A DNA stretch of 64,000 nt from positions 1-64,000 of the forward strand of contig CBDDTI010000408.1 in the NCBI GenBank assembly GCA_965233585.1. The letters run 5' to 3'. The translations under genes and the position numbers were made by a program. This stretch comes from a bacterium. Its GTDB lineage: Bacteria > SAR324 > NAC60-12. Shown piece by piece: positions 3,938-52,143 of this stretch; positions within the stretch are counted from its first letter, which is position 1, and each line of letters starts with the position of its first letter. The notes under the pieces were generated by a model. The model did no database searches. It was given only the letters and a program-made list of their open reading frames with translations, and was not told the DNA's origin.

Positions 3938-5145
3938 TTGAGAGGGAAGCAGCCTCGACGGTGGTAATTGATAGTGCATTTCTGCCTTCCTTCCTTCCAG
4001 ACCCACCTGGTTGGCTCGCCCAAAGAGATTACAGATTAGGCAGAGTTCTAGTTCACTAAACAAATGGATAGTACAAAAGTTAAGTGTAATTCTTGGTAAA
4101 ACCATTAAATATTCCCACAATGGTGCTGTTACCACATATTGTTTCGGCAAAACTGAGTGGTCTGGAGCATTGGTTTTCAATTTTTTCTGCCTGAAGGATT
4201 ACTAAATTGGTATCTTGAGATAAAAAGGTGGCCCAGGGGGTGTTGCCCCCTGGCAATTTGAATTTTTGTGAGGGGGTTGATCTATGGTTGCTTTTTACTG
4301 TTTAGTCAGCCGTATCTTCCGCACATGCTTCTGCAAATATTCTGTAATATGTAGGAATCCTATTCGCACAGCATTTTTTTTCGGCAAAGTAGTGACCATG
4401 CAGGTTTCATTTATAGTGTGAAAAAGTTCTAACTGTCAGCTGAATCTTCTGCACATGCTTCTCCAAACATTCTGTAACATATAAAAAGCTCAATACATTA
4501 GAGACAGGATACTTTGTAAAATTGAATCCTGTTCCAATTCCACTTAACTTCTGGTATGCTACGTTCCATTCCATTAGATGTTTCTAGAGATATACTTACA
4601 TAGTTTCTCATATCTTAGGGCTTGCCCATTTGACTAGGATTTCTAGGCAGCTGTTGAAAGGAAAGCTATGTGATTGTTGACAGTGGTAAGAATGTCTGTG
4701 GGTTAGACTGTTTAATAGTTAAAAATCAGTTTGGCGACCCTAGCTCAAAAATCACGCAAAAATATCTAAGATAAGCTACACAACCTTTCACTTTTTTGGT
4801 CAATTTCAATCACTACTTCTTAATTATTTAAGTAATTAGCCAATGAAAAGATTTGAAAGAAAGACCTTCATCACGTATTTATAAGTTGATTCAACTCATT
4901 AGAAATCATATCCCTCTGGCCATTTAAATGAGTTTTGAGAGTACAATCTCGATGGGACACACGGTATTTTTTAGCAAAAGAATGATTGTATGGTCTTGTT
5001 AGGTGCAATAGAGAAAGTGTGCTAAGTAGAGACACTCGTCTAGACCTTTTATCAAAACTTTGAATTCTTTTCTTCCCTCAATAATTGCCAACAATATCTT
5101 GAAATAGAATCTGTTACAGTTTTTACAAAGGAAACTTAGTAATAT

Positions 5146-5460
5146 TACTGTGTTGTTTTTTAAGCAGGTCAATGTGTTTTTAGCAGAATGCACGAAGTAG
5201 ATTCTCATAAAAATAACCTATAACTCATCATGTTGGCAGGACCCATCCTTTTTGTTTAATGCTTTATCCTTGATTACCTATAATTACCTAATAATACGAC
5301 CCCTTGCCATGGACCACAAAAATGGAGTACATGATGGTAAAAGGGAGTTTATTGCCATAAACAGCTTTCTGACAAGTCCTGTAATCGTTTCTAACCAGAA
5401 TTGGAACATTCCAATTAATTGGGAGGTTGTGATTGCATTTTGAAATTCTGCTATTATATG
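5146..5460 (+). mobile_element. Truncated copy of a TA-flanked MITE family (TIR CYGTGTTGTTTTTTAACAGG)
   Basis: Homologous to the left part of the complete copy at 52144-52681. The right half is absent. Confidence 0.6.
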
Positions 5461-5501
5461 GTTGAGAGAGAGTCTTTCCCAAAGAGGTTATACATATAGA
5501 G

Positions 5502-5901
5502 CCAGGTTAATTACTTAAATTTTATGTTCATAAAATCCACCCTTCTAAAAAGCAAGTTTTCCTTCTCGTTTTGTGCTTAACTACAGTGACGACCTAATTA
5601 ACCCGACATGAACCGGTCTGGTTAAGAGTCAGTTCCAATTCTGAGAATCGCTCACCCCTCACTCTGGTGTCACACGCTTAAGCACTTTTCAACTCCAGTC
5701 AACGACGCCTTACTTGTTGCCTTTGTTGTCATGCTCACTTATCAATAAGATATGCTTTTGTGGGAACAAAACTCGTGACCACAAAACTCGTTTTACTTCG
5801 TAATCAAAAGAAGTGAAATAAATTCAGATTAGATTTAGCATTCACTTGCGAAAGTCGTCCGTTATTTCTAAGCCTCGTTATAAAAACCTCCCGACCTTTC
5901 A
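5502..5901 (+). repeat. 5' LTR (lacks the first ~8 bp, TGAAGGGT, seen in the 3' LTR)
   Basis: Matches 19599-19973 and ends in gacctttCA, the inverted complement (8/9) of the 3' LTR start TGaagggtc. aataaa near 5817. Confidence 0.9.
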
Positions 5902-5903
5902 CG

Positions 5904-5912
5904 TGGTGGCAG
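5904..5912 (+). promoter_or_regulatory. Primer-binding site, tRNA-Leu-like
   Basis: TGGTGGCAG 2 nt after the LTR CA; complementary to a tRNA 3' end CUGCCACCA. Confidence 0.7.
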
Positions 5913-5958
5913 GCGAACCCTTTTCGGGGGGTAACAGCCTTTGGCTTAATACTCCATT

Positions 5959-8900
5959 ATGCAACGTGATGGAGATGAAGAACTCCCAACAGGGGCCCAA
6001 GCAGCTGGACCTAGTACCCTTTCGGACGTACTAGCCACACTCCAATTGTCTGCAGACTCAGAAGCACAGGTTACTTCTTTTATCGACTCTCTCGCGCATG
6101 GTCTAAATGGACCCCGCTTTCGTAAATTGTTAACCTATATCCTCAAATTTGTGGAATTAAATAGGTCTAAATATGAAACACTCCGATCGGAGCAATCACG
6201 TCTTACTAACCTAGCAAATTCCAATCGGGATGAGCTGAACCAAATATTAACAGTATTACAGGAACGACTGCCACCTGTGGCTCCAGTTCCTAGGGTTCCT
6301 GCAGTGCCAGCAGTGGCAACGCAATCTTTTCAGGATATTTCTACTGCAGTGCCAACAATGGCAACGCAATCTCAGGCAGCTATGCCTTCCGCGCCAGCAT
6401 TGGCACCTCAGGTCTCACAAGCAACAGAACCACCAGCCTCAATGGCCTCGGCTTCTGTACCTGTGCAGCCCTCTGCTTTTCAGCCAGTCCCTCCGACTGC
6501 TGGTGCGAGTTATTACGGAGCACCTGCGACGTTTACTCCTAGCATTCAAAACCCAGACGGAACCGTCTCTCGTAGAATGGACCAAGTAGGTAATAACGTC
6601 ATGGTTACCTTCTCTGGTAACGACGACATGGCCTCTAGAAAAGCCAAACTTTTCGGCTCCGCCGCTAAGTATGACATTTTTACTGGTCAAGACATGAGCA
6701 AGTTTCCCGAATGGGTAGCACAGTTCTTGTCTGGGGTTAATTTGTTTCAACCTACTGAGCCCAATGCTTGTAGGATTGCTTTACATTTGCTGAAAGACAA
6801 AGCCGCAGAAATGTCGAAAAATGTCTCTCAGAATATTACGATGCAGAACTTGCAGGAACTCCTGACAACTCTCGATCGTATTTTCAATACCTCTGGAAAT
6901 CGTATCGTTGCGGTCGGTCTCTTTAACGGTTTTACTCAGCGCGAAGACATGCCTGTACAAGATTATGCGATTAAAATTGAACAATTGTTTTATCGAGCGT
7001 ATCCTGGCTTGAACCCTGATTTGTCTATGTTCCTTATGGATCGTTTCATTACTGGTCTAATCTCGACAGAGGTTAAGCAAAAGTTGCGCATACCACCTTT
7101 GCCCAGCTATTTCCGTGAAGCGGTTGAAAAAGCCATGTCAATGACTGCAGCAATTTACCATGGGGACCAAATAATGAAACAACGGTCCATGGCTTGGAAA
7201 ATGGCGGCATCTGCCAGCAATCCATTGAACACGAAGTCATCCAAGAGTCCCAGGGGACATATTCAGATGATTGAGACTCAAGATTCTCCAGCCACAATAC
7301 AAGTGCTGAAGAAATGGTGTTCTTTGCATAAAACGGATAAACATTCCAACAGCGATTGTAGAGCTCAGAAGGAGACTGCGCCCTCTGGCTCCAGCTCTAA
7401 AACCGCCGCAAAGAAGCGTCCCAAGGGATCTGAGAAGCGAAAAACTAAACCCAGAAAGTTGAAATTCAAATCGACCTCTGACAAAAAGAAGTTTTTGCGT
7501 TCAATTGAAGACACGGAAGGGGTTTCTCTTGAGAGCGCCAGCTCAGACGACGAAGAAGTCGTTGAACAAAGTCTCATGCAACTCGATCCTGCCTCTGGTG
7601 GAACTTCGGATGAAGATGAAGGGGAACTCCACATACTGATGTTGAACCCAGACTCATTACTAGATGACCCCGACATCAACATGTCTAACGTCTTCTTAGA
7701 TCCATGCACTCCGTCTGGAACTTTGGGTCCAGGGGTAAGCGGTTTGCGACTGGAAGGGGAAAAAGCAGACTCCCCGATGTCGACGAAGACTGGAGATTAT
7801 TCTTCAAGATTCAGTCCTCTAGACGCAACCCTGCTGAACACTTCAACCATGAACACTCCCGTCGTTCAAATTCCAACCATCAAGGATGAGCAAAATCCTT
7901 TCTCCCCTGAGCAGCTTCCCATGGAAGAAGATGTGTTTCCTCCTCTAGCTGCTAACAGCATCAATCCTGATGCAAATGCCACAGCATGTTCAGCCACCCA
8001 GAACTACATCCTCTATGGAGGAGTTTACTATTATCCGGTCCCACCTCCGCATAATGTGGTTGTCTCCCAATCAGCGGTCCCAAAACCTGATTTGGTTCCT
8101 GTCCCCGCTGAACCAACATTGGATGCAGTACCTCCGGTAATCCCTTCGGAGATTCCGTTACCTGCTACTGACACTGAAGCGGAAATTGACTCCAACATGT
8201 CCGCTCCCGCAGCTAACACTCCATCAACTTCTGCCACAACCAATGACACCGTCACTGAACCTCCTGCAAACTCCAAGACTCAGGGCAGTTCGGATTTCGC
8301 AGTGCCAACGGGAACTACTTCCAAGAAGGCCAGGAGGAAATCAAGACCTAGATCAAGGTCTTCATCGTCCCGCAATTCTGAGCCTTCCCAGACTCGTCGC
8401 TCTCCAGGAGCCATTCCTGATTTCTTGGTAGACGCCCAGAAAGTCCGTGGTATCGGCCGAGGAAAACCCAAGGACACTGTTCCATCACCAGCGCCGATTC
8501 CTTTCGCTGGAACCACTCTCCCGAAGGAGAACCTCAAGATTACCGTTCCTTCTGGAAACGGGCCCAGGAAAGTGGAAATACTTCCCGACTATCCTGCCAA
8601 CATTGCACATTTGGCCGGATTGGAGAATGAGACTCGAGGACAAGTAGAAGCTCAACTCTCTTCCACCATTAAGGACGACTTCTCTGTCCAACTTCCTCAA
8701 GAAGACCCTCAAGAGGATTCGGAGATTGACGTTCTCACCGGAGAAGTCCAAAGTCCCAAGACAACTCCGATCCAATTTTCATTTCAGGCTCTCTCTATTT
8801 TGGAGGACCACCAACGGTTCGCCCAAGAAGTTCTGAAATTGGAAGCCGACACTTGGGATCGCAACAAAGTTGAGCGCAATCCCAGTCTGTTCTATCACGC

Positions 8901-9675
8901 CTACTTCTTGGACCAACAGAAGCTCCATGAAGTGAGACAGAGAGGAAACATTCGGATCCAACAATTCAACGTCAAGGTCACCAGACAGCCCTCTGACACT
9001 GACACTCCCACTAATAGCCGGTACAACCGTGAGAAGCTAGAAGCAAAGTTCAAGGTAGCTATTAGTAACCTCTATCATGCATTCGAGGAAGCTTTCCAGT
9101 TCGAGAGCTCCGAGTTCATAGAGGATCTCAGCAACCATTTGGTCAAGAACTCCGTTGCCCAGATCACTAGCCTCTTCGCCAGCTCTAGGTGCCGGACATG
9201 TCACCGCGGCCGACGAATGGATGCCACTTGGAGACTTCGCAGGTTTGAAACCTTGCTACCATTCCTCTCCGAGATCCCTGCAGAGTCTTATCGCCGAGCT
9301 GAGGATCATAGAGCTCACGTCCTATTGGATAAGACTGCCTTGGTCGCTGACGAGACCGTCTCCGACAAGTTTCGGCTAGGTTTCACGTTAGAAGACCGAA
9401 GGAGTTACGCCTCTCTTACTCCGGAAGAGAAGAAGTCCTTCAATGAGGAGCTCGCTGTCTTAGCGAGAAACAATTCCCTAATGAGAATGTCCCGAAGATG
9501 GGAGAGTTGCAAGTTCGAATCTCCCGCGCTGGACATAAACCTGGGACATCAAGCGTTCCAGAAGATGCGCCAGCTGAGGCGACAGAACCTCTTGCCAGTG
9601 GCTCAGATGCTACTTCACAGGTATCGCGACCGATACGAGCAGCTCGTTAGTCGCTTCGGGAAATCTCAGTCATAA
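5959..9675 (+). CDS. gag: Gag-like ORF1 (1238 aa): coiled coil, capsid-like domain, CHHC zinc knuckle, long acidic/Pro-rich linker, unknown C-terminal domain
   Basis: ATG just after the PBS. Retrotransposon capsid-like segment (IFTGQDMSKFPEWVAQF...TQREDMPVQDYAIKIEQLFYRAYP...DRFITGL). C-x2-H-x4-H-x4-C knuckle CSLHKTDKHSNSDC at 7318-7359. Confidence 0.85.
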   Translation: MQRDGDEELPTGAQAAGPSTLSDVLATLQLSADSEAQVTSFIDSLAHGLNGPRFRKLLTYILKFVELNRSKYETLRSEQSRLTNLANSNRDELNQILTVLQERLPPVAPVPRVPAVPAVATQSFQDISTAVPTMATQSQAAMPSAPALAPQVSQATEPPASMASASVPVQPSAFQPVPPTAGASYYGAPATFTPSIQNPDGTVSRRMDQVGNNVMVTFSGNDDMASRKAKLFGSAAKYDIFTGQDMSKFPEWVAQFLSGVNLFQPTEPNACRIALHLLKDKAAEMSKNVSQNITMQNLQELLTTLDRIFNTSGNRIVAVGLFNGFTQREDMPVQDYAIKIEQLFYRAYPGLNPDLSMFLMDRFITGLISTEVKQKLRIPPLPSYFREAVEKAMSMTAAIYHGDQIMKQRSMAWKMAASASNPLNTKSSKSPRGHIQMIETQDSPATIQVLKKWCSLHKTDKHSNSDCRAQKETAPSGSSSKTAAKKRPKGSEKRKTKPRKLKFKSTSDKKKFLRSIEDTEGVSLESASSDDEEVVEQSLMQLDPASGGTSDEDEGELHILMLNPDSLLDDPDINMSNVFLDPCTPSGTLGPGVSGLRLEGEKADSPMSTKTGDYSSRFSPLDATLLNTSTMNTPVVQIPTIKDEQNPFSPEQLPMEEDVFPPLAANSINPDANATACSATQNYILYGGVYYYPVPPPHNVVVSQSAVPKPDLVPVPAEPTLDAVPPVIPSEIPLPATDTEAEIDSNMSAPAANTPSTSATTNDTVTEPPANSKTQGSSDFAVPTGTTSKKARRKSRPRSRSSSSRNSEPSQTRRSPGAIPDFLVDAQKVRGIGRGKPKDTVPSPAPIPFAGTTLPKENLKITVPSGNGPRKVEILPDYPANIAHLAGLENETRGQVEAQLSSTIKDDFSVQLPQEDPQEDSEIDVLTGEVQSPKTTPIQFSFQALSILEDHQRFAQEVLKLEADTWDRNKVERNPSLFYHAYFLDQQKLHEVRQRGNIRIQQFNVKVTRQPSDTDTPTNSRYNREKLEAKFKVAISNLYHAFEEAFQFESSEFIEDLSNHLVKNSVAQITSLFASSRCRTCHRGRRMDATWRLRRFETLLPFLSEIPAESYRRAEDHRAHVLLDKTALVADETVSDKFRLGFTLEDRRSYASLTPEEKKSFNEELAVLARNNSLMRMSRRWESCKFESPALDINLGHQAFQKMRQLRRQNLLPVAQMLLHRYRDRYEQLVSRFGKSQS

Positions 9676-9710
9676 CGATCTCCGATTCCCCTCCTTTTTC
9701 TCACTTTACT

Positions 9711-12700
9711 ATGTCACAGCCAGTAAGCGGTATCTTCTCTCAAAAAGACACAAAGGATCTAATCAGTTCCTGCCGAACTATCTCTTCTTCTTTACCCAAA
9801 CTTCTTCCTGTTCGACTCAATGGACGAACAGTTATGGCTCTTGTCGATAGCGGCAACAGTTTCTGCAACGCTTTATCATTGTCAGTGGCTAAGAAGATCC
9901 CGATTACGGATTATCAGCCATACACTGGTTCTCCAGTAGGCACCGCTTCCGTCGGTTCTAGCATTAATATAGTGGGAATTGTTCCCTCTATTAACTTTTA
10001 CATTCCTGACGACACCGGGAAGGAACATGTGTTACCATCCCGACTTGTCCTCGTCAAACATCTCTCTTGCGGCCTCAACATTTCATTACCTTTCTTGGTT
10101 GAACATGGCCTAGATTTAATTTTATCTCAAGGAATTCTCTCAAAGAGTCCAGAGAATCTTCGTTTTCCGTTGTATCGGAACATCAATCATGCTCGCCGAC
10201 GTCTCAAGAAGCAAATCGACGCAGTCCCCCAGATTAATGTTGTCACCATTGGCGACCGATCTACCACCGCCTACAGCAAGATGCGCCAAACTATTCCACC
10301 CAGAACTGGGAAACTTATTCCGGTTCGCGTAGAAGAAACCGAAGTACAAGATCCAACAGATTCTGTTTTTAATTTTAAAGATTCTTTTATCCGCAAAATA
10401 AATAGTCTTCATCCTGATCAGGATGACATCTATTTCGGTCTGAATTCTTTAGAACAAATCACTTCTATCTCCGACACAAACGAGGTCGAAGTATACTTTT
10501 TCAATGAATCTCCGCATTCCGTGACTATTAGCAGTAACTGTGATATTGGCACTATTCTGATTCCAGAACATCACCGCTCTGTCATAAATATGACTAAAGT
10601 TATGACCATTACAGAGAAACCTTCAAAACCGTCCGATTGGATGAGCAATATTCCTTCCAGTAAACTAACTCCCGCATCACATGAGAAGCGACGCGAACAC
10701 ATTCGACAAGTGTTGAACTTTCGCGATAATCCTATCCTACAGAAGAACCCTCGCACCTCTGGACAAATAATTGATTTGATTATGAGTTTTTGGGATGTCT
10801 TCTATAGAGAAGGAAATTGCGGTGGAACTGATGTCATTGAGCATCCCGTTTACACTCCCAAAGGACTTCCACCTATTCGCTTGAAGAACCGTCCGATCAA
10901 CCCTGGTTTGACGGAGTCTCTTAAAGAACAGATAGCCGTATGGCTAAAAGATGGTGTTATTCGTTCCGGAGGAGTCTCTCCCTGGAATTTTCCTCTTCTC
11001 CCAGTTCGAAAAAAGAATGGAAAATGGAGATGGGTAGTTGATTTTCGAGCTCTTAATTCTGTCACTCGAAAAGACTCCTTTCCTATCCCAAACATCATCG
11101 AGCTTTTAAGCTATCTTCGGAAAAGCAAAATTTTCACTTCTCTGGATCTTGCCCAAGCTTTTCACTCCATTCCCGTCCGCGAAGTTGACCGCGAAAAGCT
11201 TTCTTTTTGTGCTCTAGATAAGTTTTATCAATTTTGTCGAATGCCCTTCGGGCTAACCAGTGCTCCTAACACTTGGGCACGACTGGTCACTCAGGTGTTA
11301 CATGAGATTCCGAAATCTCAGCTCATCGTCTTTTTTGACGATCTTCTTATTCACTCTCCTGACCTAACTACACATGTTGATACCCTTAAACAGGTTTTTG
11401 TCCTGTTACAAAAGGCTGGGTTAAGGCTCAATATGGAAAAGACCGATTGGGTCAAAACGGAAGTGAAATTCCTTGGACACCTAATCTCCGACCAGGGGGT
11501 ATCCGTTCCTCCCGAATTTTCTCAGATCATCAAGGATTGGCCATTGCCCAAGACTTTGAAGGATCTCAGAGCCTTTCTCGGAAAGTGTAACTATTACCGA
11601 AGTCACTTCCAAAATTTTGCGATTATTGCTTCACCCTTAATGGCCCATCTCAAAGGTGCCAGTGAAAGTTCACGCAAGTTGGACCTGGAAAAAGATCCTA
11701 AAGCAATTGCTTCCTTCGAGTCTTTAAAACAATTGCTCATGTCTCCGCAGTTGTTGGCCTATCCTGACTTTGATAGCTCCGAACCTTTCATAGTTGATAC
11801 TGATTATTCTCACGAAGGGTTAGGTACAGTCCTCTCGCAGATCCAAGATGGGATAGAAAGACCCATTTCATTTAACGCTCGCAGACTGAAACCAAGCGAA
11901 TCCCAGTACGCTTCCCATAAGGGAGAATTACTTGCTCTGATCTTCGCTATAGATACCTACAAATTCTTCCTGACTGGTAGAAAGTTCCTTGTCCGTACTG
12001 ATAACTCTGCCTTATCTTGGCTGAAAACTCAAAAAGATCCTAAGGGTATCTTGATGAGGTGGTTGAGAATCATCAGCAGTTATGATTTCGACATCCAACA
12101 TCGAGCCGGTACCAAGCATGGTAACGCGGATTCTTTGTCTCGAACCTCTCATGCTCCTTTCCTCTCTGAAAAGGAAGCTCAAGAGATCCTGGCCGATGAT
12201 CAGATCCTCTTGCTAGGAGAAGCTCCTGAAGATGATGGCCAAGAATCTGAAGACGAGGATTCTCTCAGCGAATCCGACGACACTGATCCTCGCATTCCAC
12301 ACCAAACCGAATTTCCGGTTCCCCAAGGTCCCTATGAGGACGATATCATTGAGAAACAACAGACTGATATCACCTTATCCAAGATCTCCGCCTGGGTCAG
12401 ACAACAGCACAAACCTACCTCACAAGAGTACAAGCTACTCAACCCAGATGAAAAGTTTTATGTTGATTGCTTCGAGTATCTGGAAATCCTGCCTTCCGGC
12501 CTCCTCGTTCGAAATCCCATTCCTTTCACCAATGAAAAGGATGTTCGGATTCCTCTTCCTGAGAAACTCTGGAATAAGGTTCTCGCTTCCTTCCATGGCA
12601 AAAATCATGCCGGTGGAAATTCTCTGGCTGATTGTGTACAGCTAAAGTACATATTCCCCCGTCTAGTTAGCTTTTGCCGGGAATATGTATTCAAATGTCC

Positions 12701-14147
12701 TCGCTGTCAGAAGCTATCCAACAAAAAAGCTCAACGCCATACGTATGGTTATGACCTTGTTGGAAGTCCTGGAGAGAAGATTTGTCTCGATTTTGTCGGA
12801 CCTCTCAAACCAACAAAGAAAGGACATACTTCTCTGCTCACCGCCGTTGACGTTTACACTCGCTGGTTCACCGCCTGGCCAGTTAAGAATCAGAAGGCTG
12901 AGACTGTCATCAAATTCCTAGTTAGGGATTACTTTCCAGACCGTGGCGTTCCTTCAGTAGTTCACTCTGACAATGGACCTGCCTTTATTGCACATGTTTT
13001 TCAAGTGGCCATGGCAGCCTTTGATGTTCGAACTACCACTACGCCGGTTTACAATCCCAAGAGCAACACTGTTGAGCGATTTCATCGCAGCATGAAGCGC
13101 AAACTTACTGCTCTGATCCATGAATTCGACGACGAATGGGACGAAGCTCTACCTGCTACACTCTTAGCAATGAGAACTTCAGTCAACCGCACCACTGGTT
13201 TCACTCCGTTCTACCTTGAACATGGTAGAGAAGCCAGATTACCTGTCGACATGATCGCTGGACCTCCGCCTGTTCAACCCGAACATCTTGACAAGTACAC
13301 AGATAAGATTCGGAATCAATTCGCGAAAGCTTTTTCTGTTGTAACTGAACGTCAGAATTCTTACATAATGCGCCAAAAGGAGCTGTATCGAGAAAGGCAA
13401 CACAAGATCAACATTGATGACCTTGTGTGGCTCTTCACCGACCGAGCCAACCCTAGCCTCAACCGAAAATTCCAATCCTTTTGGTCTGGACCTTACAGAG
13501 TTGTTAAACAGCTTTCCAACACTATTTTCGAGATCGAGTCCTACGGAAGGTGGACTAAGAGTAAGATCGTCACTTCCGCAGCTGTCGATAGACTCAAGAA
13601 GTGCTACGTCACCGATCCTGACACCAACTTGGGCGTACCAGTAGAGTTGACTGCCACAGACGTTCGTCCTTACTTCGAAGACCAAGAGCTGTTAGGAAGG
13701 CTACCTGCCTCTGACTTCGCTCCACATGTCTTTGACAAGGAACAAGAACTTCCAATGACGTTACCATCACCCTCTCCTAGGGATGATGTCCCTATCACTC
13801 CCCTTGCTGACGGACAGTCTTTTGACCCTCCGGTTTCTGTACCTGTCCCGCAAGATCCTGAACCCGCTGTTACTGTTCCGGTAACCGCAGAACCACTTCC
13901 GGAAGCTCCTCCCGAAGTCACAGTTGTACCTAAAGCTGAACCCCAAACAGAGCCAGCATCTCGTAGAGGTCGAGGACGACCTCCGGGCAGAAAGAATAAG
14001 CCCAGACCTTGTCCTAACTGCACGCCCAATCTTCCATGCGTTACTCACTGCACACAATGCAAAACCGGTTCCGCATGTGAACAGCACACTGCAAGACAAA
14101 GATGTGCTAAGTGTACTCGTACTCGGACATGTCCTGCTCACTCATAA
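9711..14147 (+). CDS. pol: Pol polyprotein (protease, reverse transcriptase, RNase H, integrase with GPY/F and unusual C-terminal tail)
   Basis: PR ALVDSGN. Ty3/gypsy RT motifs SPWNFPLLPVRKKNGKWRWVVDFRALN, LDLAQAFHSI, RMPFGL, FFDDLLI. RNase H DTDYS..ELLAL..RTDNSAL. IN HHCC plus D(LDFVGP)-D(HSDNG)-E(VERFH). WSGPY. Confidence 0.97.
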   Translation: MSQPVSGIFSQKDTKDLISSCRTISSSLPKLLPVRLNGRTVMALVDSGNSFCNALSLSVAKKIPITDYQPYTGSPVGTASVGSSINIVGIVPSINFYIPDDTGKEHVLPSRLVLVKHLSCGLNISLPFLVEHGLDLILSQGILSKSPENLRFPLYRNINHARRRLKKQIDAVPQINVVTIGDRSTTAYSKMRQTIPPRTGKLIPVRVEETEVQDPTDSVFNFKDSFIRKINSLHPDQDDIYFGLNSLEQITSISDTNEVEVYFFNESPHSVTISSNCDIGTILIPEHHRSVINMTKVMTITEKPSKPSDWMSNIPSSKLTPASHEKRREHIRQVLNFRDNPILQKNPRTSGQIIDLIMSFWDVFYREGNCGGTDVIEHPVYTPKGLPPIRLKNRPINPGLTESLKEQIAVWLKDGVIRSGGVSPWNFPLLPVRKKNGKWRWVVDFRALNSVTRKDSFPIPNIIELLSYLRKSKIFTSLDLAQAFHSIPVREVDREKLSFCALDKFYQFCRMPFGLTSAPNTWARLVTQVLHEIPKSQLIVFFDDLLIHSPDLTTHVDTLKQVFVLLQKAGLRLNMEKTDWVKTEVKFLGHLISDQGVSVPPEFSQIIKDWPLPKTLKDLRAFLGKCNYYRSHFQNFAIIASPLMAHLKGASESSRKLDLEKDPKAIASFESLKQLLMSPQLLAYPDFDSSEPFIVDTDYSHEGLGTVLSQIQDGIERPISFNARRLKPSESQYASHKGELLALIFAIDTYKFFLTGRKFLVRTDNSALSWLKTQKDPKGILMRWLRIISSYDFDIQHRAGTKHGNADSLSRTSHAPFLSEKEAQEILADDQILLLGEAPEDDGQESEDEDSLSESDDTDPRIPHQTEFPVPQGPYEDDIIEKQQTDITLSKISAWVRQQHKPTSQEYKLLNPDEKFYVDCFEYLEILPSGLLVRNPIPFTNEKDVRIPLPEKLWNKVLASFHGKNHAGGNSLADCVQLKYIFPRLVSFCREYVFKCPRCQKLSNKKAQRHTYGYDLVGSPGEKICLDFVGPLKPTKKGHTSLLTAVDVYTRWFTAWPVKNQKAETVIKFLVRDYFPDRGVPSVVHSDNGPAFIAHVFQVAMAAFDVRTTTTPVYNPKSNTVERFHRSMKRKLTALIHEFDDEWDEALPATLLAMRTSVNRTTGFTPFYLEHGREARLPVDMIAGPPPVQPEHLDKYTDKIRNQFAKAFSVVTERQNSYIMRQKELYRERQHKINIDDLVWLFTDRANPSLNRKFQSFWSGPYRVVKQLSNTIFEIESYGRWTKSKIVTSAAVDRLKKCYVTDPDTNLGVPVELTATDVRPYFEDQELLGRLPASDFAPHVFDKEQELPMTLPSPSPRDDVPITPLADGQSFDPPVSVPVPQDPEPAVTVPVTAEPLPEAPPEVTVVPKAEPQTEPASRRGRGRPPGRKNKPRPCPNCTPNLPCVTHCTQCKTGSACEQHTARQRCAKCTRTRTCPAHS

Positions 14148-14209
14148 GCAGATATAAGAGGCCCATCGAGGGGAGGCCTCATTCAGTCCATCCCTCGCTC
14201 TCAATTAAC

Positions 14210-17200
14210 ATGAAGATTTCTCTTCTTTGGTTGTCCTTCATTGCCATTATCTTGGGCGAGAAACAGCCTATTTACATTCCTTATGACTACTACGATTTGT
14301 GGCTAGTAGTTGGGAGTAATTCAACAGGCCGACTCTTCTTCAATCCGATTCCGGATTCACGACGGATCTTTATCTGGAAGCCGAACAATGCCTCAATACC
14401 TCCGACGCTCTTCTTTGAAGACTATCCGGAGATTTTACAAGACGATCTTTCGACAACTTCCTCAGAAATTTTTGAGGGAACTGTTTCATCGAGTGTTCCT
14501 AACACTTCTCCAACAACTCTTGAGGAGACTGAGGAAACACTTTCCCCGACACATCCTTCCGGATACTTTTCAACTGACACTGTTGCAACAGCAGCCTTAG
14601 AACGTCCTCCACCTGGGAAGCACAAGAATGCTACCAATAACGTACCAGGTATGAGTTTATTGCAGCTACATAGTTCTTTGCAACTTGCAGAAATGATGAA
14701 AACGTTGAGTCCTCAGCCAGCGACTCCTAACCTTCCTGTTCCACCTCAAAGGAACGAAACCTTTACCACTCGTCCTCCTAGCACTGCCAAAATTGTCGAT
14801 GCTAAAGACGAAATAGATTTGACGAGGGAAGGATCCCGTCTCTACCAGCTTCGGAAAGAGAAGACGCGATTGAAGAGACAAATCTCACCTGATGCTGCCA
14901 CTGAGCTAAACCTCAATGATGCCCAGCTGAACAGTTTGCAAGCTCAAGTCAATCGGCGATTCCTTACGGGATACGATTGCGCCAATCCTCAGGAAGTCAA
15001 ACCCATCAGTTCATTCATTCAAGATCCTTGTGAACCGATTGGAGCTAATGACCAAGACAACTACGAGATTGGCGATAAAGCGCAGTATCAAATCGTCCAA
15101 TACGAAACTCGAAGAGAGTTTAAAGGAACTCGCTGTGAACTTCGTATGTCCAGATTCACGTATTATTGTGGAAATGCTGATCACGCAAGTCCATATCCCC
15201 AAGAGACCTATTACAAGAAACCCAAGACTCTTCGTTGGGAACAATGCCGAGATCTGGCCACCCTTGGTCAGTACATCGCTGGAGACGACAAGACGTACAC
15301 TGTCGCTCGCAACACCCGAACCGAAGTCCCTTATTTTGCCTATGGGTCAGCTACAGCCTACACGGGATTCCAGGGTGCTCAAATTTCCTGCACTGGAAAT
15401 ACTATGCTGATCGATGGAAAAGAGATCCATCATATGGTCATGTACATCACCGAAGAAATCCTGTACAGGGACGAAACTTTCGTTACCCGCGATAACGAGG
15501 ATACTGTTGTCGCTCATTACGACAATGTCCGCCTCACTTGTCCCATCGAGGAACAACAATGCGTTGGTAACGATGTCACCTACGTCTGGCGAGTCCCATT
15601 AAAGGAACATTGTCCTTTATACCACATTCGATTCTTCGAAGGTCAAATGATTAAGCATCAAGTAGATGGACTCACTGTCCAGACTAATAAGATTGTAATA
15701 TCCACTGATCAGTCTAATGTTCGTTTTGTTGTTAAAGGAAAAAAGGAAGAATGCGACCAAACGTTCCTTACCACCAACTATCCGGATGTCATGATCAGAG
15801 ATACGATGCTTAACGGCGCTGTCGACCGCAATCTTGTGAAACGACCGATGCCTAAGGACGAGTTGCAACTGAGCAACTTCATCACCAATCGTGACGATTT
15901 CGTCTATCATGCCATCAACCGGAAGATGAAACAAGAATTCTTTTCCGTACTCCGAGACGATTGTAGAGAAACTCTCCGCAAAATCAAGACCGAACACTTT
16001 TTGGAACGACAACTTCCAGGTCTTCATACCTACCGACTTGGTGGATCTAACTACCTTACCGCTGCTGGAGAAGTAGCTTACTTTTATAAGTGCCAACCTC
16101 GCCTTGTCGCAGCCATCCGAGCCGACACTTGCTACGATGCGTTACCGGTCGAAATTGCCAGTCAGAATGACACTCTGACTACCTACTTTCAAGCCGACGG
16201 TCATGAAGCCATCGTACCTCGGTTCTACATTGAGCCTTTAACTCATAGGCTAACTTCTGTAGCCAAAAAGGTCCCTTGTTTGTCGAAATTCTTCGCCCGT
16301 TATCAAGACCTTTTCGGCCAATGGTTCGCTGTCACTCCCAGCATTTCACCAACTGAACCACCAGGCAAACTTGATCTTGAAGCCCTCATAAAAAAGGCTA
16401 CTTTTGATGATTCTTCAGATGTCGACTTGTCCCGAGGAGGGATCTACGAGCCTGAAGCTGTCGATGATCTCATCACCTGGCTAGAAGGAAACAGACGCCA
16501 GGAGGTTATCATGCATCAAATCACCAAACAAGTTGGTGATCTCAGTCCCGGTCAGTACATTACTCCACGGTTAATGTTTCCGCCGCACACATTGCCCGGT
16601 GGATCTTGGCACACCTTTATATTGGGAAAGTTATGGGGTGCTATTCGGGGATTGGGTGAAATCTTCTCTTCTATTTTTGGCCTCTTGATAGTTGGCCGCC
16701 TTGTTTGGTATCTGATAAAGGTTCTGATGAACTGCAGTTATATCCATAGCGTGCACGGTTGTTCAGCCCAGCTCGCTTGGTCTTTTTGTACCGAAGTCTT
16801 TTTCACTAGACTATACAGAAGAGAACAAAAGTCGTCTGCGGAAAGATCCGACAATGACCCTACTTCCAAACCAAAGTTTCCCGTACGAAATCGTATATTC
16901 AACTTTGGCAATATTTTCTCAAAGAATGTCAGCGACACTGACAGAACGGAAACTCCAAGCACCGGAATCCCTGTTCCGATGAATCCTCTTCGACGCAGTC
17001 ACTCCGTTTCTCATCTGAGAAAAGACACTGTATCGACTTGTCCGAACCGTCTGCAGTCCCAGCTCGACAGAGCTTTCGCTGCTTTTCAGCCATGTCCTCC
17101 GGGAATGCCTAGATCTCCCTTCCCTCCGGACTATGTAAACGACCAAAGGGTCGGATCTCCCTTAGACGGAACTAGAGCAACACCATCCGCTCCTGTGGAT

Positions 17201-17383
17201 GTAAATGAAATTTCCCGAGCCGTACCAGAACCACCTCCATTGCCAGAGCGAACTCGAACTCCCAATAGATTTGCTTTCACTCCGATTATAACTCCAGAAG
17301 CCAGAATTCCTCCTATTCCCAATAGGGATCCTGTTATTAATAGGACGCCAAGTGGCGATCCTCCTCCTCTCCCTGGTCGATAA
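14210..17383 (+). CDS. env: Envelope glycoprotein, chuvirus-like / class III (gB-like) fusion protein
   Basis: Signal peptide MKISLLWLSFIAIILG from ATG 14210, S/T/P mucin-like region and furin site RLKR. The ectodomain starts FLTGYDC..PC..YQIVQ..CELRMSRFTYYCG. The C-terminal TM is followed by NCSYIHSVHGCSAQLAW, matching the layout I recall for chuvirus glycoproteins. Long Pro-rich tail. Confidence 0.8.
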   Translation: MKISLLWLSFIAIILGEKQPIYIPYDYYDLWLVVGSNSTGRLFFNPIPDSRRIFIWKPNNASIPPTLFFEDYPEILQDDLSTTSSEIFEGTVSSSVPNTSPTTLEETEETLSPTHPSGYFSTDTVATAALERPPPGKHKNATNNVPGMSLLQLHSSLQLAEMMKTLSPQPATPNLPVPPQRNETFTTRPPSTAKIVDAKDEIDLTREGSRLYQLRKEKTRLKRQISPDAATELNLNDAQLNSLQAQVNRRFLTGYDCANPQEVKPISSFIQDPCEPIGANDQDNYEIGDKAQYQIVQYETRREFKGTRCELRMSRFTYYCGNADHASPYPQETYYKKPKTLRWEQCRDLATLGQYIAGDDKTYTVARNTRTEVPYFAYGSATAYTGFQGAQISCTGNTMLIDGKEIHHMVMYITEEILYRDETFVTRDNEDTVVAHYDNVRLTCPIEEQQCVGNDVTYVWRVPLKEHCPLYHIRFFEGQMIKHQVDGLTVQTNKIVISTDQSNVRFVVKGKKEECDQTFLTTNYPDVMIRDTMLNGAVDRNLVKRPMPKDELQLSNFITNRDDFVYHAINRKMKQEFFSVLRDDCRETLRKIKTEHFLERQLPGLHTYRLGGSNYLTAAGEVAYFYKCQPRLVAAIRADTCYDALPVEIASQNDTLTTYFQADGHEAIVPRFYIEPLTHRLTSVAKKVPCLSKFFARYQDLFGQWFAVTPSISPTEPPGKLDLEALIKKATFDDSSDVDLSRGGIYEPEAVDDLITWLEGNRRQEVIMHQITKQVGDLSPGQYITPRLMFPPHTLPGGSWHTFILGKLWGAIRGLGEIFSSIFGLLIVGRLVWYLIKVLMNCSYIHSVHGCSAQLAWSFCTEVFFTRLYRREQKSSAERSDNDPTSKPKFPVRNRIFNFGNIFSKNVSDTDRTETPSTGIPVPMNPLRRSHSVSHLRKDTVSTCPNRLQSQLDRAFAAFQPCPPGMPRSPFPPDYVNDQRVGSPLDGTRATPSAPVDVNEISRAVPEPPPLPERTRTPNRFAFTPIITPEARIPPIPNRDPVINRTPSGDPPPLPGR

Positions 17384-19590
17384 CGACTCCAGGAGACTTA
17401 TATATAAATTACAAAGGATCAAAATTGATCATAGTAATGTAAAATAAAAGCCTAATAAAATAATAATAATAATAATAATAATAATATCAACATCAAAAGC
17501 CAATCATCAACAATGATCGAAGTACTTTGAAGTCTGACGAACACGATCCGCTCTGAGTCTACCTGTAATCAACATAGGCAAAGCCCGGACCTGATCACCC
17601 GGCGGATCCTTCATCCAAGCTGTCACATGACCTTTCACGTGAAGAACATTTTCCGTTTACATGATTTCTTTCCTTCACCATTGACTGACTTTTCAATGGC
17701 CCAGTACCGAAGAAGACATTCACAAAGGGAAAATAAGCCCTATACTGGTTCAGTGCATGCACTGTGTTTCTCAACACTTCGTCAGCGTACAATATAGTTT
17801 CCCTCGAGAGTTCAAGTGGCCCCATTCCAGTTTCTGAAATTCAATGCACCACCCACGCTCAAGTAGACAAACTACAACGACTTCAAACGCGTACTCGCTT
17901 AGCATCTACAGCCTCTTCCTCAGCAGTTCTCTACAAACAAATTGCGCCGAAAGCCTTCACGATGCGACGCGACGCAACTTCGACGCTCACAAATACACCG
18001 TCCAAATTGTGCCTCACAAGTCAGTCCTCTGACTCCTTTCACATGGAACGGTCATCCGTAACATTCACAGGAAATCAGAACGATGACTCCCGTCACACGG
18101 AACGGTCTTCCGTGTAACCATCAATGATTGAAGGAAAAGTCTCAACTTAGCCTCGACATGAAGACAACTTCGACCACTCACAGCTTTTGCACTTCAACAA
18201 ACCTTGGGTTCTGACGTCTTAGGTGCTTTCCATATGCTTGGCACCAAAGATTTCAAGAATACATCTCCCAGGACTTCAAGACGTTCTTGACCAAGTCTCT
18301 GATCCGTCATCCTCGGCAAGACGTCTCACTTAAGCTCCTTGACCAAGTCTCTGACCCGTCATCCTTGGTTATAGCTCCTCATCACTGACTCAGCAGTTGT
18401 CCGAAGATTACTGTCCAATTAAAGGATTCCAAGCCGCGACATCTTCTTGCATCCTCTGGATTGGCAACCGCGAAGATTCTTGTTAGACCATCGGGATCGA
18501 CGGCCACTGAAGTCGGTCCTGCGTGTCGGTATCTTCCTTCATTTTTTGTCTCAATTCCAGCATGGATCCTGATATTGTGGCTCAAGTCCTTCATAACCTT
18601 TCACAAGTGGTTGTCTGGCCGCCCAGAAACCAAAATGCATCATCGTCCAAAGCTACGTCAGCACGAAATTCACAGTCCTGTTCCAATAGTCCTTCAAAGG
18701 TTTGAGGATAAGGCTATCGAACACCCGAAGTCAAAGTTACCATGTCCAGCTTCAAGTTTCGACCATTCCTCATCATCGTCCAAATCATTGGTCTCTGGTT
18801 CCTTCCAAGCCTCACACAATAGGTCAAGTACTGAACATTGAAGCAATTTGCCTCGCTGGCCCTGCCTCTTGAAATTCCTCAGGGAAAGAAGTTCTAGCTT
18901 CTCCGCACAATTGGGTATAAAGTCGTAGACTAGTACCTCCCTCAGCGGTAGTTGCTATTGCCATTGCTGTTGCTTCCTTTTTTGTTGCACCAATCGTCTC
19001 TGTTGTAACCGCAAATAGGGATCAAGAGATCAATCGAAGGATTCAAGCCATTGCAAATGTCAACCAGCCACCATCTCTGGTGTCTTCGTTAAGTTACTTG
19101 GGGTACTTCGCTAGAGTTCTCCCTTGCAAGCGCGAATTCAACATTTGCCGAAGCCTTCATCAGCACCAAACATGACAACGTAGAAGTCCGAAGTTAGAAC
19201 AATGATGTCAAACTTGCCTCCGAAATCACGCGCTACTCAGGGCTCATGTGCTCCTGGGCATCATTTAGAATAACTTCCACAAGACAAACTAAGAACCGTC
19301 CGACTTATCAGAAGATGAAAATTCACGCTCAGATTCAGTTTCCTGTTAGAATAACGCCTTGGTTCACCTCAAGACCTCAAGACTCAAGACACAATTGCGA
19401 AGAATCGTATTGATCTTGAGAAGTGCATAATGAGTATCCTAAATTTTTGTATATTTTGCCCTTAAGAAGAAACAATTCGGTATGTGAACAACAGCTTTTT
19501 TCAAAGCTCATGCCATAAGCAACGTCCTTAAGCTTCAAACACTCTTGGACGTTCCGTTTCTATTTCCTCAATTTTCTTCTTGGGGGTACA

Positions 19591-19973
19591 TGAAGGGTCC
19601 AGGTTAATTACTTAAATTTTATGTTCATAAAATCCACCCTTCTAAAAAGCAAGTTTTCCTTCTCGTTTTGTGCTTAACTACAGTGACGACCTAATTAACC
19701 CGACATGAACCGGTCTGGTTAAGAGTCAGTTCCAATTCTTGAGAATCGCTCACCCCTCACTCTGGTGTCACACGCTTAAGCACTTTTCAACTCCAGTCAA
19801 CGACGCCTTACTTGTTGCCTTTGTTGTCATGCTCACTTATCAATAAGATATGCTTTTGTGGGAACAAAACTCGTGACCACAAAACTCGTTTTACTTCGTA
19901 ATCAAAAGAAGTGAAATAAATTCAGATTAGATTTAGCATTCACTTGCGAAAGTCGTCCGTTATTTCTAAGCCT
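19591..19973 (+). repeat. 3' LTR (lacks its last 26 bp; fused directly to an F-env fragment)
   Basis: Starts with TG after the short G-run ttgggggtaca. Identity with the 5' LTR stops at ...tctaagcct (equivalent to 5875). Confidence 0.9.
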
Positions 19974-20976
19974 TACCTGCACCGTTTTTCTTAGGAAATT
20001 CCTCTGTTATTCTGGATGTGGAAAATTCCGCTGAGTATTTAGCTGTAGATACTCATGGTTTTGTTGGAAAACAGATGACTTCTTTTGAATTCCAACTCTG
20101 CAAAAAGATTTCTGCTGTATACCACTGCCCAGATATGAATTTACTTTCCAAGAATTTGACTACTCTTTGTTTATATAACTTATACTCGCAAAGCGCTTCC
20201 AATATTGAGCGGACTTGTAATGTGAGGGTTAAAAAGATGCATTCGCACGCCGTCCAGATCTCTACTTCCTTGTACCGAATTATGACCTCCGAACCTACCC
20301 AACTGGTCGTTGAGTGTAAGAAGGAGACAAATATCACATCGATACAAGGAATCCATCTTCTTCAATTGACTGAAGAGTGTCCGAAGACATCAACATCCGA
20401 ATATCTGTTTGTTCGAGCACCGGACATGATAGGTTATCATGAGATTATCCTGTTACCTTTGCTTTCCCAGGCCAAGGAGTGGCTTGGGACAATTGCCAAG
20501 GAGGTCGATCTGACAAATGGTCTGGAAGGGATAGAGTTAACCAATTCTCTTTCATTACCAGAGTTCCGACGGAAAGTTAGTTCTTCTCAAGGCTCGTATT
20601 CTAGGGTCGAACGATATATGCTTTCTGTTGTGCTCTATGTGATCCTATTAGGGGCCTTTGTCTATATGATTTACTTCTTTCGACGGAAATTTAAGAAAAA
20701 TTCTCGTTGTGCTAAGCCGGAAGAACCTTCTTTACCTCTCATGTCACCAAATGCAGGATCTGTGTCTATTAGCAACCCGACTGCGCCTTTCCCCAACTCT
20801 GTTTTAAAGCAGTTTGAATAGTTACAAAATGGAAACTATGCTTAGTATCCCCATTACTTGGAGGCTTGGCAACCCTCTCAGAAAGGTAGACTTGATCACC
20901 TATTCTTTCTTGGCAGATTTAATGGCTGTACTAAACACGGTACGGGGTTTTCCATTTGCAAAAATCATTTACGATT
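19974..20976 (+). pseudogene. env: 5'-truncated second copy of the F-type env 3' end plus its 3' UTR, without LTR
   Basis: Colinear with 39-1041 at high identity. Frame is open to the stop at 20821. Homology ends at catttacgatt, just before the PPT of copy 1. Confidence 0.85.
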
Positions 20977-21749
20977 GACTTTCTTCCCCTAGATAATATT
21001 TAATCCCTTTCCCCCTTTTTCCATTCCTTTTTTTTGCAAGGCTGGATGGTTGAAATCAATAGATGGTACTAGCCGGCCAAATTTGCCCTGAGATTTGCTT
21101 TCATGCTTTCATTTGTTTTGGCGGAAGGGAAGTAAAAAAAGAGAGCTTGTTTTTTTGGCTTTAGCAGGGACAAATAGAGGTCAAAACTCTTTCAGTTTGA
21201 AATACACAACTTGAATTCAGTTAACTATCAATTCCTCAGTGAAGTAGTTTTCATTGGGAGCTAACTCAGGGCCAAATTTGGACTGAGATTTGCTTTCCTT
21301 CAAAAAAAAAAAAAAAAAAAAAAAAAAACGAGCCCGTTTTTGGGCTTTAGCTGGGGCAAATAGTGATCAAATCTCCTTCAGTTTGATATATACAACTTGA
21401 ATTCAGTTCATGAGATACCTACCAGTTCCTCAGTGCAGTAGTTCTCCTTGGGAGATAACTTCAAGGCCAAATTCATTTCATATCCATCTCTCAATGTATG
21501 GTAAATATGTATGCTGGCCAGTTTTGTACCCGTTTTTGCCGCTTGAGACCATATGGTAATGCAAAAATTAGAATAACTATTCGATACTCAAAAATTCCCA
21601 CAAACCTTCCTACACAGGTCAAAAAAAATTGTGAAAGTTTTAAGTCATTCCAGGAACTAGGAAAAAAAATATTTACCAACAAACTTTTGCTGATGTCCAT
21701 TTCGCCATTGGCGAAAAATAGCATGACTTTGAATGTCCTCTACTCAGAC

Positions 21750-21927
21750 TACACCTCTATCAGAACCAGAAAGGCAGCTCCTTGCACCATATTCAACAAA
21801 AGCAAATGCCTTTTGTGGGCCACATGGTTCATTCTTCACAATTTTCTTTCTTCCCAATTCACAGAAGGCATTTGCTTTTGTTGAATATGGTACAAGGAGC
21901 TGCCTTTCTAGTTCTGATAAAGGTGTA
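21750..21927. repeat. Near-perfect 68-bp inverted repeat (hairpin) with ~42-nt loop
   Basis: Arms 21750-21817 and 21860-21927 differ at only 4 positions, all transitions. Confidence 0.9.
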
Positions 21928-22215
21928 ATCTCTTCAGCACTGACTTTATCAGAGTTACTACCCAATACATAGAGAACATGTTGAAAAAAAGTTTGAATGT
22001 ATATCATACTTGGTTTGGATTTTATATTCATTTTAAAAAAGCGACTTTTATGTTATATGATCACCACCGGCGAAAATGGGTTAAACAAAAAGATGGGTCC
22101 TGCCAACATGAAGACATATCTGTTGTTTTCATTAGAATCTACTGAGTGGTTTCCACAAGAAACACAGTGACCTGTTAAAATGACAACACGGTAGTTAATG
22201 CAAACTGGCTCTTAC

Positions 22216-26750: not shown

Positions 26751-26768
26751 CGTCAATCGCGGCCGGCT
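26723..26768 (+). promoter_or_regulatory. Programmed -1 ribosomal frameshift signal
   Basis: G GGA AAC heptamer (26723-26729) in the correct gag phase, with pol in the -1 frame. Stem agccgg/ccggct starts 6 nt downstream. Confidence 0.8.
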
Positions 26769-40565: not shown

Positions 40566-40569
40566 AGTT

Positions 40570-41259
<690 letters not shown>

Positions 41260-52043: not shown

Positions 52044-52096
<53 letters not shown>

Positions 52097-52143
52097 TTTA
52101 TACTTTATACTTTATATATTATTATTTACTTTACATTTTATAG

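Follow-up and report, generated by a model that had tools for sequence, protein, structure and literature searches.

Intact Ty3/gypsy elements that carry an envelope gene are the invertebrate counterparts of retroviruses, and they show retrotransposons gaining envelope genes akin to those of unrelated viruses, and hence a possible route between cells. In the sections of their survey consulted here, Chary and Hayashi (eLife 2026, PMC13524379) describe 1,512 env-carrying Ty3/gypsy elements across metazoans, many with an envelope of the gB (herpesvirus glycoprotein B) type, and report that most metazoan phyla have Ty3/gypsy elements with gag, pol and a class III env of the gB type, in this order. 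According to the same sections, the chuvirus-like glycoprotein of mosquito BEL/Pao elements also adjoins a gypsy POL in 114 arthropod elements, found among Coleoptera, Hymenoptera and Polyneoptera as well as Hexanauplia. Here we analyze an element at positions 5502-19973 of a 64,000-nucleotide stretch of DNA (contig CBDDTI010000408.1 of assembly GCA_965233585.1, positions 1 to 64,000 of the forward strand; "the window" throughout), which is very probably a recently integrated, coding-competent Ty3/gypsy (Metaviridae-type) endogenous retrovirus with a chuvirus-type class III env.

Three further reports, also cited from the parts consulted, describe systems close to this locus. Dezordi et al. 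2020 (PMC7642597) described mosquito BEL/Pao elements, Anakin among them, that have captured a Chuviridae glycoprotein, and Kojima 2025 (PMC12440569), who defined Troyka, lists Anakin as a case of chuvirus env. Dezordi et al. 2023 (PMC10084718) found many Jingchuvirales glycoproteins as endogenous viral elements (EVEs) with Gypsy fragments on their flanks, but "no clear evidence" that Gypsy had captured them. The element described here shares the glycoprotein family with the first of these groups and the backbone with Ty3/gypsy.

Results

An uninterrupted gag-pol-env element between near-identical long terminal repeats

The element lies on the + strand, is 14,472 bp long and has the order LTR-gag-pol-env-LTR (LTR, long terminal repeat; Table 1); the borders proposed by the initial annotation coincide exactly with the LTR ends. 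In a self-comparison of positions 4000-22000, the two LTRs appeared as one long direct repeat pair. Their global alignment showed 374 equal bases out of 374 aligned and one 1-nt indel over 375 columns, an extra T in the 3' copy at column 141, which bears out the view that this is a young element. Open reading frames (ORFs) were called with the standard code, and the three long + strand frames between the LTRs are all uninterrupted, at 1238, 1478 and 1057 amino acids; the coding capacity is thus as intact as had been claimed. The G+C content of the element is 46%, against 37.5% for the remaining window, and its features are no chance pattern.

A G-rich, polypurine-tract-like stretch, GGGGGTACATGAAGGGT, ends at 19598 and abuts the 3' LTR. 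In the leader, GGTAAC at about 5927 might serve as a splice donor. The region between env and the 3' LTR has no stop-to-stop frame longer than 150 amino acids. It holds AATAAA at 17443 and 17454, then an (AAT)n run, just past the env stop. Pfam found nothing in 12 of its 30 listed small frames (those of at least 60 amino acids) or in the 150-amino-acid frame, and Rfam found nothing in this region at E<=0.1.

Both flanks of the element are dispersed repeats that recur in the window, and they show the element to be chromosomal, within repeat-rich DNA. On the 3' side, a 1-kb repeat begins exactly at the LTR border (19974-20976, 94% identical to 39-1041); on the 5' side there is a repeat of about 315 nt, with copies at 5142-5458 (+), 52140-52452 (+) and 59127-58810 (-) that are 82-83% identical. 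Both copies of the 1-kb repeat are on the + strand and hold an ORF (2-886 and 19970-20821) whose product combines an ectodomain-like stretch that contains Cys with a single transmembrane segment and a short tail; no Pfam or PDB match was obtained for it. This ORF could be the C-terminal half of an envelope-like protein of another element.

Table 1. Coordinates of the features of the env-bearing element (aa, amino acids; RT, reverse transcriptase; RNase H, ribonuclease H).
Feature	Position	Strand	Remarks
5' LTR	5502-5875	+	374 nt; ends CCAGG...AAGCCT; single AATAAA at 5817
Leader	5876-5958	+	between 5' LTR and ORF1
ORF1	5959-9675	+	gag-like polyprotein, 1238 aa
Capsid-like region of ORF1	6691-7059	+	aa 245-367; weak PNMA / Retrotrans_gag matches below Pfam cut-offs
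Zinc-knuckle-like WCSLHKTDKHSNSDC	7315-7359	+	CX2HX4HX4C, aa 453-467; nearly invariant in family alignment
ORF1 C-terminal domain	8776-9672	+	aa ~940-1238; predicted all-helical, ~300 aa, strongly conserved
ORF1/ORF2 junction	9651-9710	+	pol frame -1 relative to ORF1, open from 9651; ORF1 stop 9673-9675
ORF2, pol	9711-14147	+	1478 aa
Protease	9807-9920	+	Asp_protease_2, aa 33-70; DSG at aa 46
RT	11004-11480	+	RVT_1, aa 432-590, E 6.5e-34; FFDD at aa 541
RNase H	11700-12083	+	RT_RNaseH (E 2.2e-26) and RT_RNaseH_2, aa 664-791
Integrase zinc domain	12558-12716	+	Integrase_H2C2, aa 950-1002
Integrase core	12768-13058	+	rve, aa 1020-1116, E 1.5e-17
Integrase_p58_C-like (GPY)	13488-13598	+	aa 1260-1296
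Integrase C-terminal tail	13962-14141	+	AT-hook RRGRGRPPGRKNKPR, then three tandem CX2CX5CX2H knuckles
ORF3, env	14129-17383	+	1084 aa; 1057 aa from second ATG 14210
Signal-peptide-like hydrophobic N-terminus	14210-14263	+	aa 1-18
Furin-type site RLKR	14867-14878	+	aa 220-223; divides N-terminal/mucin-like part from fusion ectodomain
Class III fusion glycoprotein region (predicted)	14957-16849	+	PF24664 Monjiviricetes_fusion
Transmembrane segment	16661-16729	+	aa 818-840
Env cytoplasmic-tail motifs	17123-17194	+	PPDY 17123-17134, PSAP 17183-17194
3' region	17384-19598	+	2215 nt, without long ORF
3' LTR	19599-19973	+	375 nt

Pol is of the Ty3/gypsy type

By Pfam, the domains of Pol follow the order protease - RT - RNase H - integrase, as in Ty3/gypsy, and the catalytic motifs DSG, SLDL, FFDD, HHCC and D,D,E are all present. 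When Pol was compared with the 177,635 distinct sequences of the PDB, its best solved relatives were Ty3 Gag-Pol (7q5b, E 1.4e-78) and Ty3 RT (4ol8, 1.8e-60). Cauliflower mosaic virus (1.9e-35), foamy viruses (about 1e-32 to 1e-30) and gammaretroviruses of the murine leukaemia virus type (about 1e-23 to 1e-22) came lower, and human immunodeficiency virus was likewise far below Ty3; no BEL/Pao structure was seen among these sequences. No BEL/Pao-specific Pfam family matched Pol at E<=0.01, the names of these families being those that we take to be specific to BEL/Pao. Because of its Pfam domains and of Ty3 as its best solved relative, we assign Pol to the Ty3/gypsy type and not to BEL/Pao, in agreement with the initial annotation.

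The frames of ORF1 and pol overlap by 25 nt, and a pol ATG is found at 9711. At its other end, Pol carries an integrase tail with an AT-hook and zinc knuckles. Of 29 Pol relatives, 4 matched a strict regular expression for this tail. When another 14 relatives were inspected, every one had units of the CX2CX5-6CX2H type, and 8 also had an RGRP/RGRG hook. Relatives bearing the tail reach down to 43% Pol identity.

Evidence for a chuvirus-type class III envelope

From its upstream in-frame ATG (14129), ORF3 shares 19 nt with the end of pol, and Env residues are numbered here from ATG 14210. All parts that had been listed for an Env of about 1057 residues, i.e. signal peptide, mucin-like region, furin site, GYDC, Cys-rich ectodomain and transmembrane segment, are present. 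The small N-terminal part is conserved among the closer relatives and is followed by a variable mucin-like stretch, with 36% S+T+P over residues 84-228. The ectodomain contains 14 Cys, with GYDC at residues 254-257, and the model described below suggests PYFAYG (15329-15346) as a candidate fusion loop. The cytoplasmic tail comprises about 215 residues and is Pro-rich.

Pfam assigned Env to PF24664 as the sole family (E 9.2e-54; 182.9 bits for a cut-off of 27; positions 20-614 of the 653 of the profile). In the protein atlas, the nearest Env clusters were PF24664 clusters, mostly viral, with a score of 0.96, and clusters containing rhabdovirus G and gB ranked below them. The Pfam family Glycoprotein_B did not match Env at E<=0.01; against the PDB, phmmer returned only noise (E>=0.14) and the family profile had no match, so that no gB was found in this way.

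An AlphaFold2 model of the ectodomain, built with 26 aligned family members and of modest quality, was used for structural searches. Foldseek returned 108 PDB matches at E<=0.001, and the matches listed were all herpesvirus gB (3.8e-11 to 2.2e-08), at template-modelling (TM) scores of 0.13-0.24. In BFVD there were 175 matches at E<=0.001. Ranks 1-14 had E values of 4.5e-27 to 5.8e-15 and TM-scores of 0.22-0.40; rank 1 is unnamed, and the glycoproteins at ranks 2-14 belong to negative-strand viruses of the chu-like, xinmo-like and related groups. These top matches included Tacheng tick virus 4, soybean thrips chu-like viruses, a dermapteran chu-related virus and Wenling crustacean virus 14. The first herpesvirus gB appeared at rank 20 (1e-11). 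Within the limits of this model, these findings support the conclusion that Env is a chuvirus-type class III envelope (Jingchuvirales/Mononegavirales type), and they agree with the resemblance to class III fusogens that had been proposed. An F-type (class I) envelope is not what we found, PF24664 being the only family hit and the predicted fold being of class III.

Conservation of Env and Pol in related elements

A total of 39 Env homologues were found, with 28-99% identity, and all of them have PF24664. Conservation was assessed on 13 full-length relatives aligned with the window protein (14 sequences). Identity to the window Env was 34-99% in the ectodomain, 33-100% in the transmembrane segment and 6-91% in the mucin-like part; the transmembrane segment was 80-100% identical in those relatives whose ectodomain was at least 66% identical. 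An R-x-K/R-R sequence occupied the aligned furin position in 11 of the 14 full-length family members. Likewise, PPxY fell in one alignment column in 11 of the 14, and a twelfth had PPxY elsewhere; in more distant members, tail identity was only 14-31%. Shuffled tails contained PPxY in only 2-10% of trials per sequence. PSAP was present in the tail of the closest members. This pattern is the one that would be expected from purifying selection on a working envelope.

Full-length protein clusters of 1238, 1478 and 1057 amino acids exist in other records. The representative of the env cluster, P0001, comes from a different record, has 1057 residues and is 99% identical over the queried residues 260-920. 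The env, ORF1 and pol clusters hold 26, 14 and 85 member sequences, respectively, an indirect sign of multiple copies. For Pol, 806 homologues were found; among the best 120 of these, identity decreased gradually from 94% to about 43%, then reached the general gypsy background of 34-40%, and hardly any of these 120 bore an informative name. One relative has a single predicted protein, P0038, in which integrase runs into env (PF00665 and PF24664) and which also carries the integrase tail. Homologues of Pol, Env and ORF1 at matching divergence had longest contigs of equal size (e.g. 12141, 12500, 6773, 7544, 15432 and 20968), which fits, as a weak and indirect sign, with their lying on the same contigs.

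The gag-like ORF1 and its C-terminal domain

The PNMA and Retrotrans_gag matches of ORF1 are sub-threshold (E 0.0026-0.03). A precomputed PF14893 assignment was found on 6 of 21 ORF1 homologues, and the distant relatives P0200, P0205 and P0228 gave equally weak gag-type matches. The zinc knuckle has CCHC spacing with His replacing the second Cys, and it is followed by a long acidic, Pro-rich linker that is predicted to be disordered. ORF1 has no PPxY, and its one PSAP falls in a variable region.

The C-terminal domain of ORF1 had 21 homologues with 41-97% identity; the representative of the ORF1 cluster, P0040, from a different record, is 97% identical over the queried C-terminal region. Among 1.84 billion proteins, only 61 representatives matched this domain, and in the longer ones the helical domain is at the C-terminus. 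Pfam, applied to 15 of the 61, gave weak gag-type matches in 3 of the 7 long ones that have the domain C-terminally. For the domain itself, Pfam at E<=10 yielded only sub-threshold noise (Cytochrom_NNT, DUF3452), the protein atlas gave no usable match, the family profile hit nothing in the PDB, and Foldseek, run on a model with a mean predicted local distance difference test score (pLDDT) of 64.4, returned 0 matches at E<=0.001.

Departures from a canonical element

Target-site duplications of 4-6 bp and LTR ends of the TG...CA type are usual, though not universal, for Ty3/gypsy elements. Several observations speak against a canonical, recently integrated element with a chuvirus-type env. The LTRs do not have TG...CA termini, and no target-site duplication was detectable, the 5-nt flanks being ...TAGAG and TACCT.... 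No convincing primer-binding site for a tRNA was found abutting the 5' LTR; the sole TGG-initiated stretch resembling a tRNA 3' end, TGGTGGCAGGCG, is located at 5904-5915, 28 nt from this LTR. At the ORF1/pol junction there is no in-phase slippery site, GGGAAAT (9658-9664) being one base off a canonical -1 site. The gag assignment is based on the position of ORF1 and on sub-threshold PNMA/Retrotrans_gag matches, and the ORF1 family profile had no match in the PDB. Finally, the Env model has a mean pLDDT of 62.9 and a predicted TM-score of 0.39, is confident only over about residues 50-320 (mostly >73), and its global TM-scores with known folds are low (0.12-0.40).

Comparison of both flanks with their paralogous copies in the window did not reveal an empty site. 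The absent duplication would be accounted for by recombination between copies, and equally by atypical end-processing by the integrase.

Other repeats of the window

A second Ty3/gypsy element, without env, is found at 25774-30154 (+), and its Pol is only 31% identical to that of the env-bearing element. Its LTR-like repeats, at 25774-25923 and 29997-30154, share 93% identity; it further has a DUF7041 ORF (25980-26750) and a pol ORF (26621-29971) with RVT_1, RT_RNaseH, Integrase_H2C2 and rve; its G+C content is 0.53-0.55, with a strong A-over-T skew, and its integrase tail holds an RRGRPP AT-hook-like motif. A tandem array with a 69-141-nt unit lies just upstream (25152-25477).

An inverted duplication of about 5.4 kb (47299-52699 and 64000-58561) consists of three blocks that are 96-99% identical, and an inverted dispersed repeat of 608 nt (2224-2825 and 33893-33311) is 88% identical. 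A satellite block at 40070-43380 comprises 20-nt arrays (40070-40560 and 41530-41805), 32/63/155-nt arrays (40585-41175) and about 187 copies of AGGTC (42432-43380); the local rise in G+C and the frames open in all three phases are due to these satellites. Of the 73 other ORFs in the window with 85 amino acids or more, 52 were run through Pfam, which gave only a sub-threshold PDZ_2 match (E 0.0009) in the ORF at 51515-51775; most of the remaining 21 ORFs are located in the second gypsy element. No Rfam family reached its gathering threshold in the window, nor did ARAGORN detect a tRNA gene.

Discussion

Our observations are best explained by a recently integrated endogenous retrovirus with a Ty3/gypsy backbone and a chuvirus-type envelope. 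In such an element, ORF1 would provide the capsid-like domain and the CHHC zinc knuckle and, beyond a long disordered linker, a helical C-terminal domain specific to the lineage, and ORF2 would provide protease, RT, RNase H and integrase. With its AT-hook and three CCCH-type knuckles, the integrase tail is likely to tether integration to DNA or chromatin, as the chromodomain does in chromoviruses. ORF3 is predicted to encode a type I membrane glycoprotein made up of a signal peptide, an N-terminal domain, a mucin-like stretch, a furin site, a class III fusogen, a transmembrane segment and a tail. This protein would most likely be produced from a spliced subgenomic RNA, like that of Drosophila gypsy; it may be cleaved at the furin-type site, and it would move enveloped capsids between cells (e.g. 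from soma to germline) or between individuals. PPxY motifs are of the kind that recruits the Nedd4/ESCRT (endosomal sorting complexes required for transport) machinery for budding or trafficking, which may be the role of the motif conserved in the Env tail. The element may also be infectious, as the initial annotation had suggested.

A bolder interpretation, which we consider rather doubtful, is that the family of the element forms a clade of its own among the endogenous retroviruses of invertebrates, as yet uncatalogued, and that functions usually carried by Gag or by a chromodomain have been relocated in it. The budding or trafficking signal (PPxY, and PSAP in the closest members) may thus be on the Env tail and not on Gag; the helical domain of about 300 residues fused to Gag could be a module for packaging, for export or for antagonism of the host; the AT-hook and CCCH knuckles of the integrase may direct integration; and the 2.2-kb 3' region may carry RNA signals. 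On this view, the element, with identical LTRs and all of its frames open, could be a retrovirus-like agent that is transmissible at present. The Gag C-terminal domain, the integrase tail and the PPxY of Env offer testable hypotheses on budding and on the choice of integration sites. Furthermore, a clean copy such as this one, with near-identical LTRs and three open frames, is suited to functional work on a chuvirus-type class III fusogen, a type for which searches of the PDB with the Env sequence and profile found no solved structure.

We considered the possibility that the element is an intact Ty3/gypsy retrotransposon that no longer moves between cells. Its spread would then be purely intragenomic, and Env would be a recently inherited passenger, or else a gene retained for what it does to the host or inside the cell (e.g. 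receptor interference). Fusion, particle release and transfer of the element are predictions from its sequence, and the absent duplication and odd termini would allow copies to be generated by recombination; multi-copy status is moreover taken, in the consulted sections of PMC13524379, as consistent with expansion and not as proof of activity. Yet the ectodomain, the transmembrane segment, the furin-type site and PPxY have been kept in relatives whose mucin-like part and tail have otherwise diverged to 6-31% identity, and none of the three ORFs is interrupted in this copy, whose LTRs are identical. We therefore regard this explanation as unlikely.

An artefact of assembly or recombination, in which two related copies have been joined and the LTR pair does not bound a single integration, would explain the lack of a target-site duplication, as well as the presence of dispersed repeats on both flanks, the 3' one starting at the LTR border. 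Still, the internal gag-pol-env region is collinear without breaks, the LTRs are identical save for one indel, and full-length protein clusters of the same lengths occur in other records, which makes such an artefact very improbable; recombination between elements would, in any case, leave a genuine element. The idea that Env is a chuvirus-derived glycoprotein EVE with no functional part in the gypsy copy that it lies next to or within, the two being unrelated, finds a precedent in the Jingchuvirales glycoprotein EVEs that are flanked by Gypsy fragments without clear capture (PMC10084718, parts consulted). It is largely refuted, and slightly less probable still than an artefact: env follows pol, whose stop it overlaps by 19 nt, and precedes the 3' LTR, a relative has the integrase-env read-through protein P0038, and the equal-sized longest contigs provide a weak, indirect link between the Pol, Env and ORF1 homologues. 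An Anakin-type BEL/Pao element, which would have the same family of env (chuvirus-like G) according to the literature consulted, can practically be dismissed, since Pol hits RT_RNaseH, RT_RNaseH_2, Integrase_H2C2 and Integrase_p58_C and Ty3 is by far its best solved relative.

Comparison with known systems

Drosophila gypsy and the errantiviruses have in common with the window element a Ty3/gypsy backbone and a third, env ORF. In both, Env is presumably made from a spliced RNA and used in cell-to-cell transfer; that of Drosophila gypsy is an F-type fusogen (similar to baculovirus F and paramyxovirus F, class I), whereas the window Env is predicted to be of class III. An insect errantivirus in the strict sense was rejected, as Env is not F-type but matches PF24664 and a class III fold. 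Herpesvirus gB shares the class III fold with the window Env at the level of fold only, its matches being weaker than those of chu-like G proteins. The glycoproteins of Jingchuvirales and Monjiviricetes share the PF24664 match but only 14-17% identity in structural alignments. In comparison with Jingchuvirales G, the window Env has an additional N-terminal/mucin part of about 230 residues, removable at the furin-type site, and an additional Pro-rich tail of about 215 residues, and it is encoded by a retroelement and not by an RNA virus. Anakin, as described in the parts of the report consulted, is also an LTR retroelement with a Jingchuvirales-type glycoprotein as env, but its backbone is BEL/Pao and not Ty3/gypsy. 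Troyka, defined in the consulted parts of PMC12440569 by CG...CG termini, a 3-bp duplication, a CX2CX8-10HX4C knuckle and no env, was rejected because the window element ends in CCAGG...AGCCT, has a CX2HX4HX4C knuckle and carries env.

Certain features of the window element have no counterpart in the literature that we consulted. Neither the ORF1 helical domain, nor the AT-hook/knuckle tail of integrase, nor a PPxY in the Env tail was found described, and the same applies, for elements of this kind, to the 2.2-kb 3' region and to LTR ends other than TG..CA without target-site duplication. A literature search on PPxY in the Env tails of retroelements yielded nothing on point among the papers listed, as judged by titles and the beginnings of abstracts. 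In the consulted sections of PMC13524379, we did not meet a counterpart of the 1238-aa ORF1 with its extra domain, of the integrase knuckle tail, of the Env-tail PPxY or of the 2.2-kb 3' region. Three Env peptide motifs of the window family had 0 hits in 7 supplementary files of that paper, which hold only 230 gapped ENV segments, and the primer-binding-site-like 12-mer had 0 hits in its supplementary table 1, which is not decisive. The flatworm elements of this survey have, in the same sections, the order GAG-ENV-POL in contrast to GAG-POL-ENV here; the ENV of one of them, Platyhelminthes_C1a (Schmidtea), has a Cys pattern in domains I-II (...YQE..C...F.YYCG..H...) that resembles, by eye, that of the window Env.

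The elements of PMC13524379 are nevertheless the closest to the one described here. As far as the consulted sections go, both have the order LTR-gag-pol-env and a Ty3/gypsy Pol, and both encode an Env in which a class III ectodomain lies between a signal peptide and a transmembrane segment, some members of the survey also having a furin site; those elements occur as multi-copy, near-identical insertions (over 98% identity), which may hold for the window family too. With respect to the characters that define such elements, the window copy has uninterrupted gag, pol and env and an ectodomain between signal peptide and transmembrane segment. Its class III fold is indicated by the Foldseek matches to gB, from a model that is confident only around residues 50-320 and aligns with low TM-scores. 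The initial annotation had put the element forward as a candidate for a new lineage of invertebrate retroviruses. Its description of the architecture and of the type of env holds, but "new lineage" was an overstatement because PMC13524379, in the sections consulted, already reports gypsy elements with class III and chuvirus-like env, so that a match with an already described organization exists for the kind. The combination of a gypsy backbone with a class III, chuvirus-like env is thus already in print, and the window element is a good new example of it, not a new kind.

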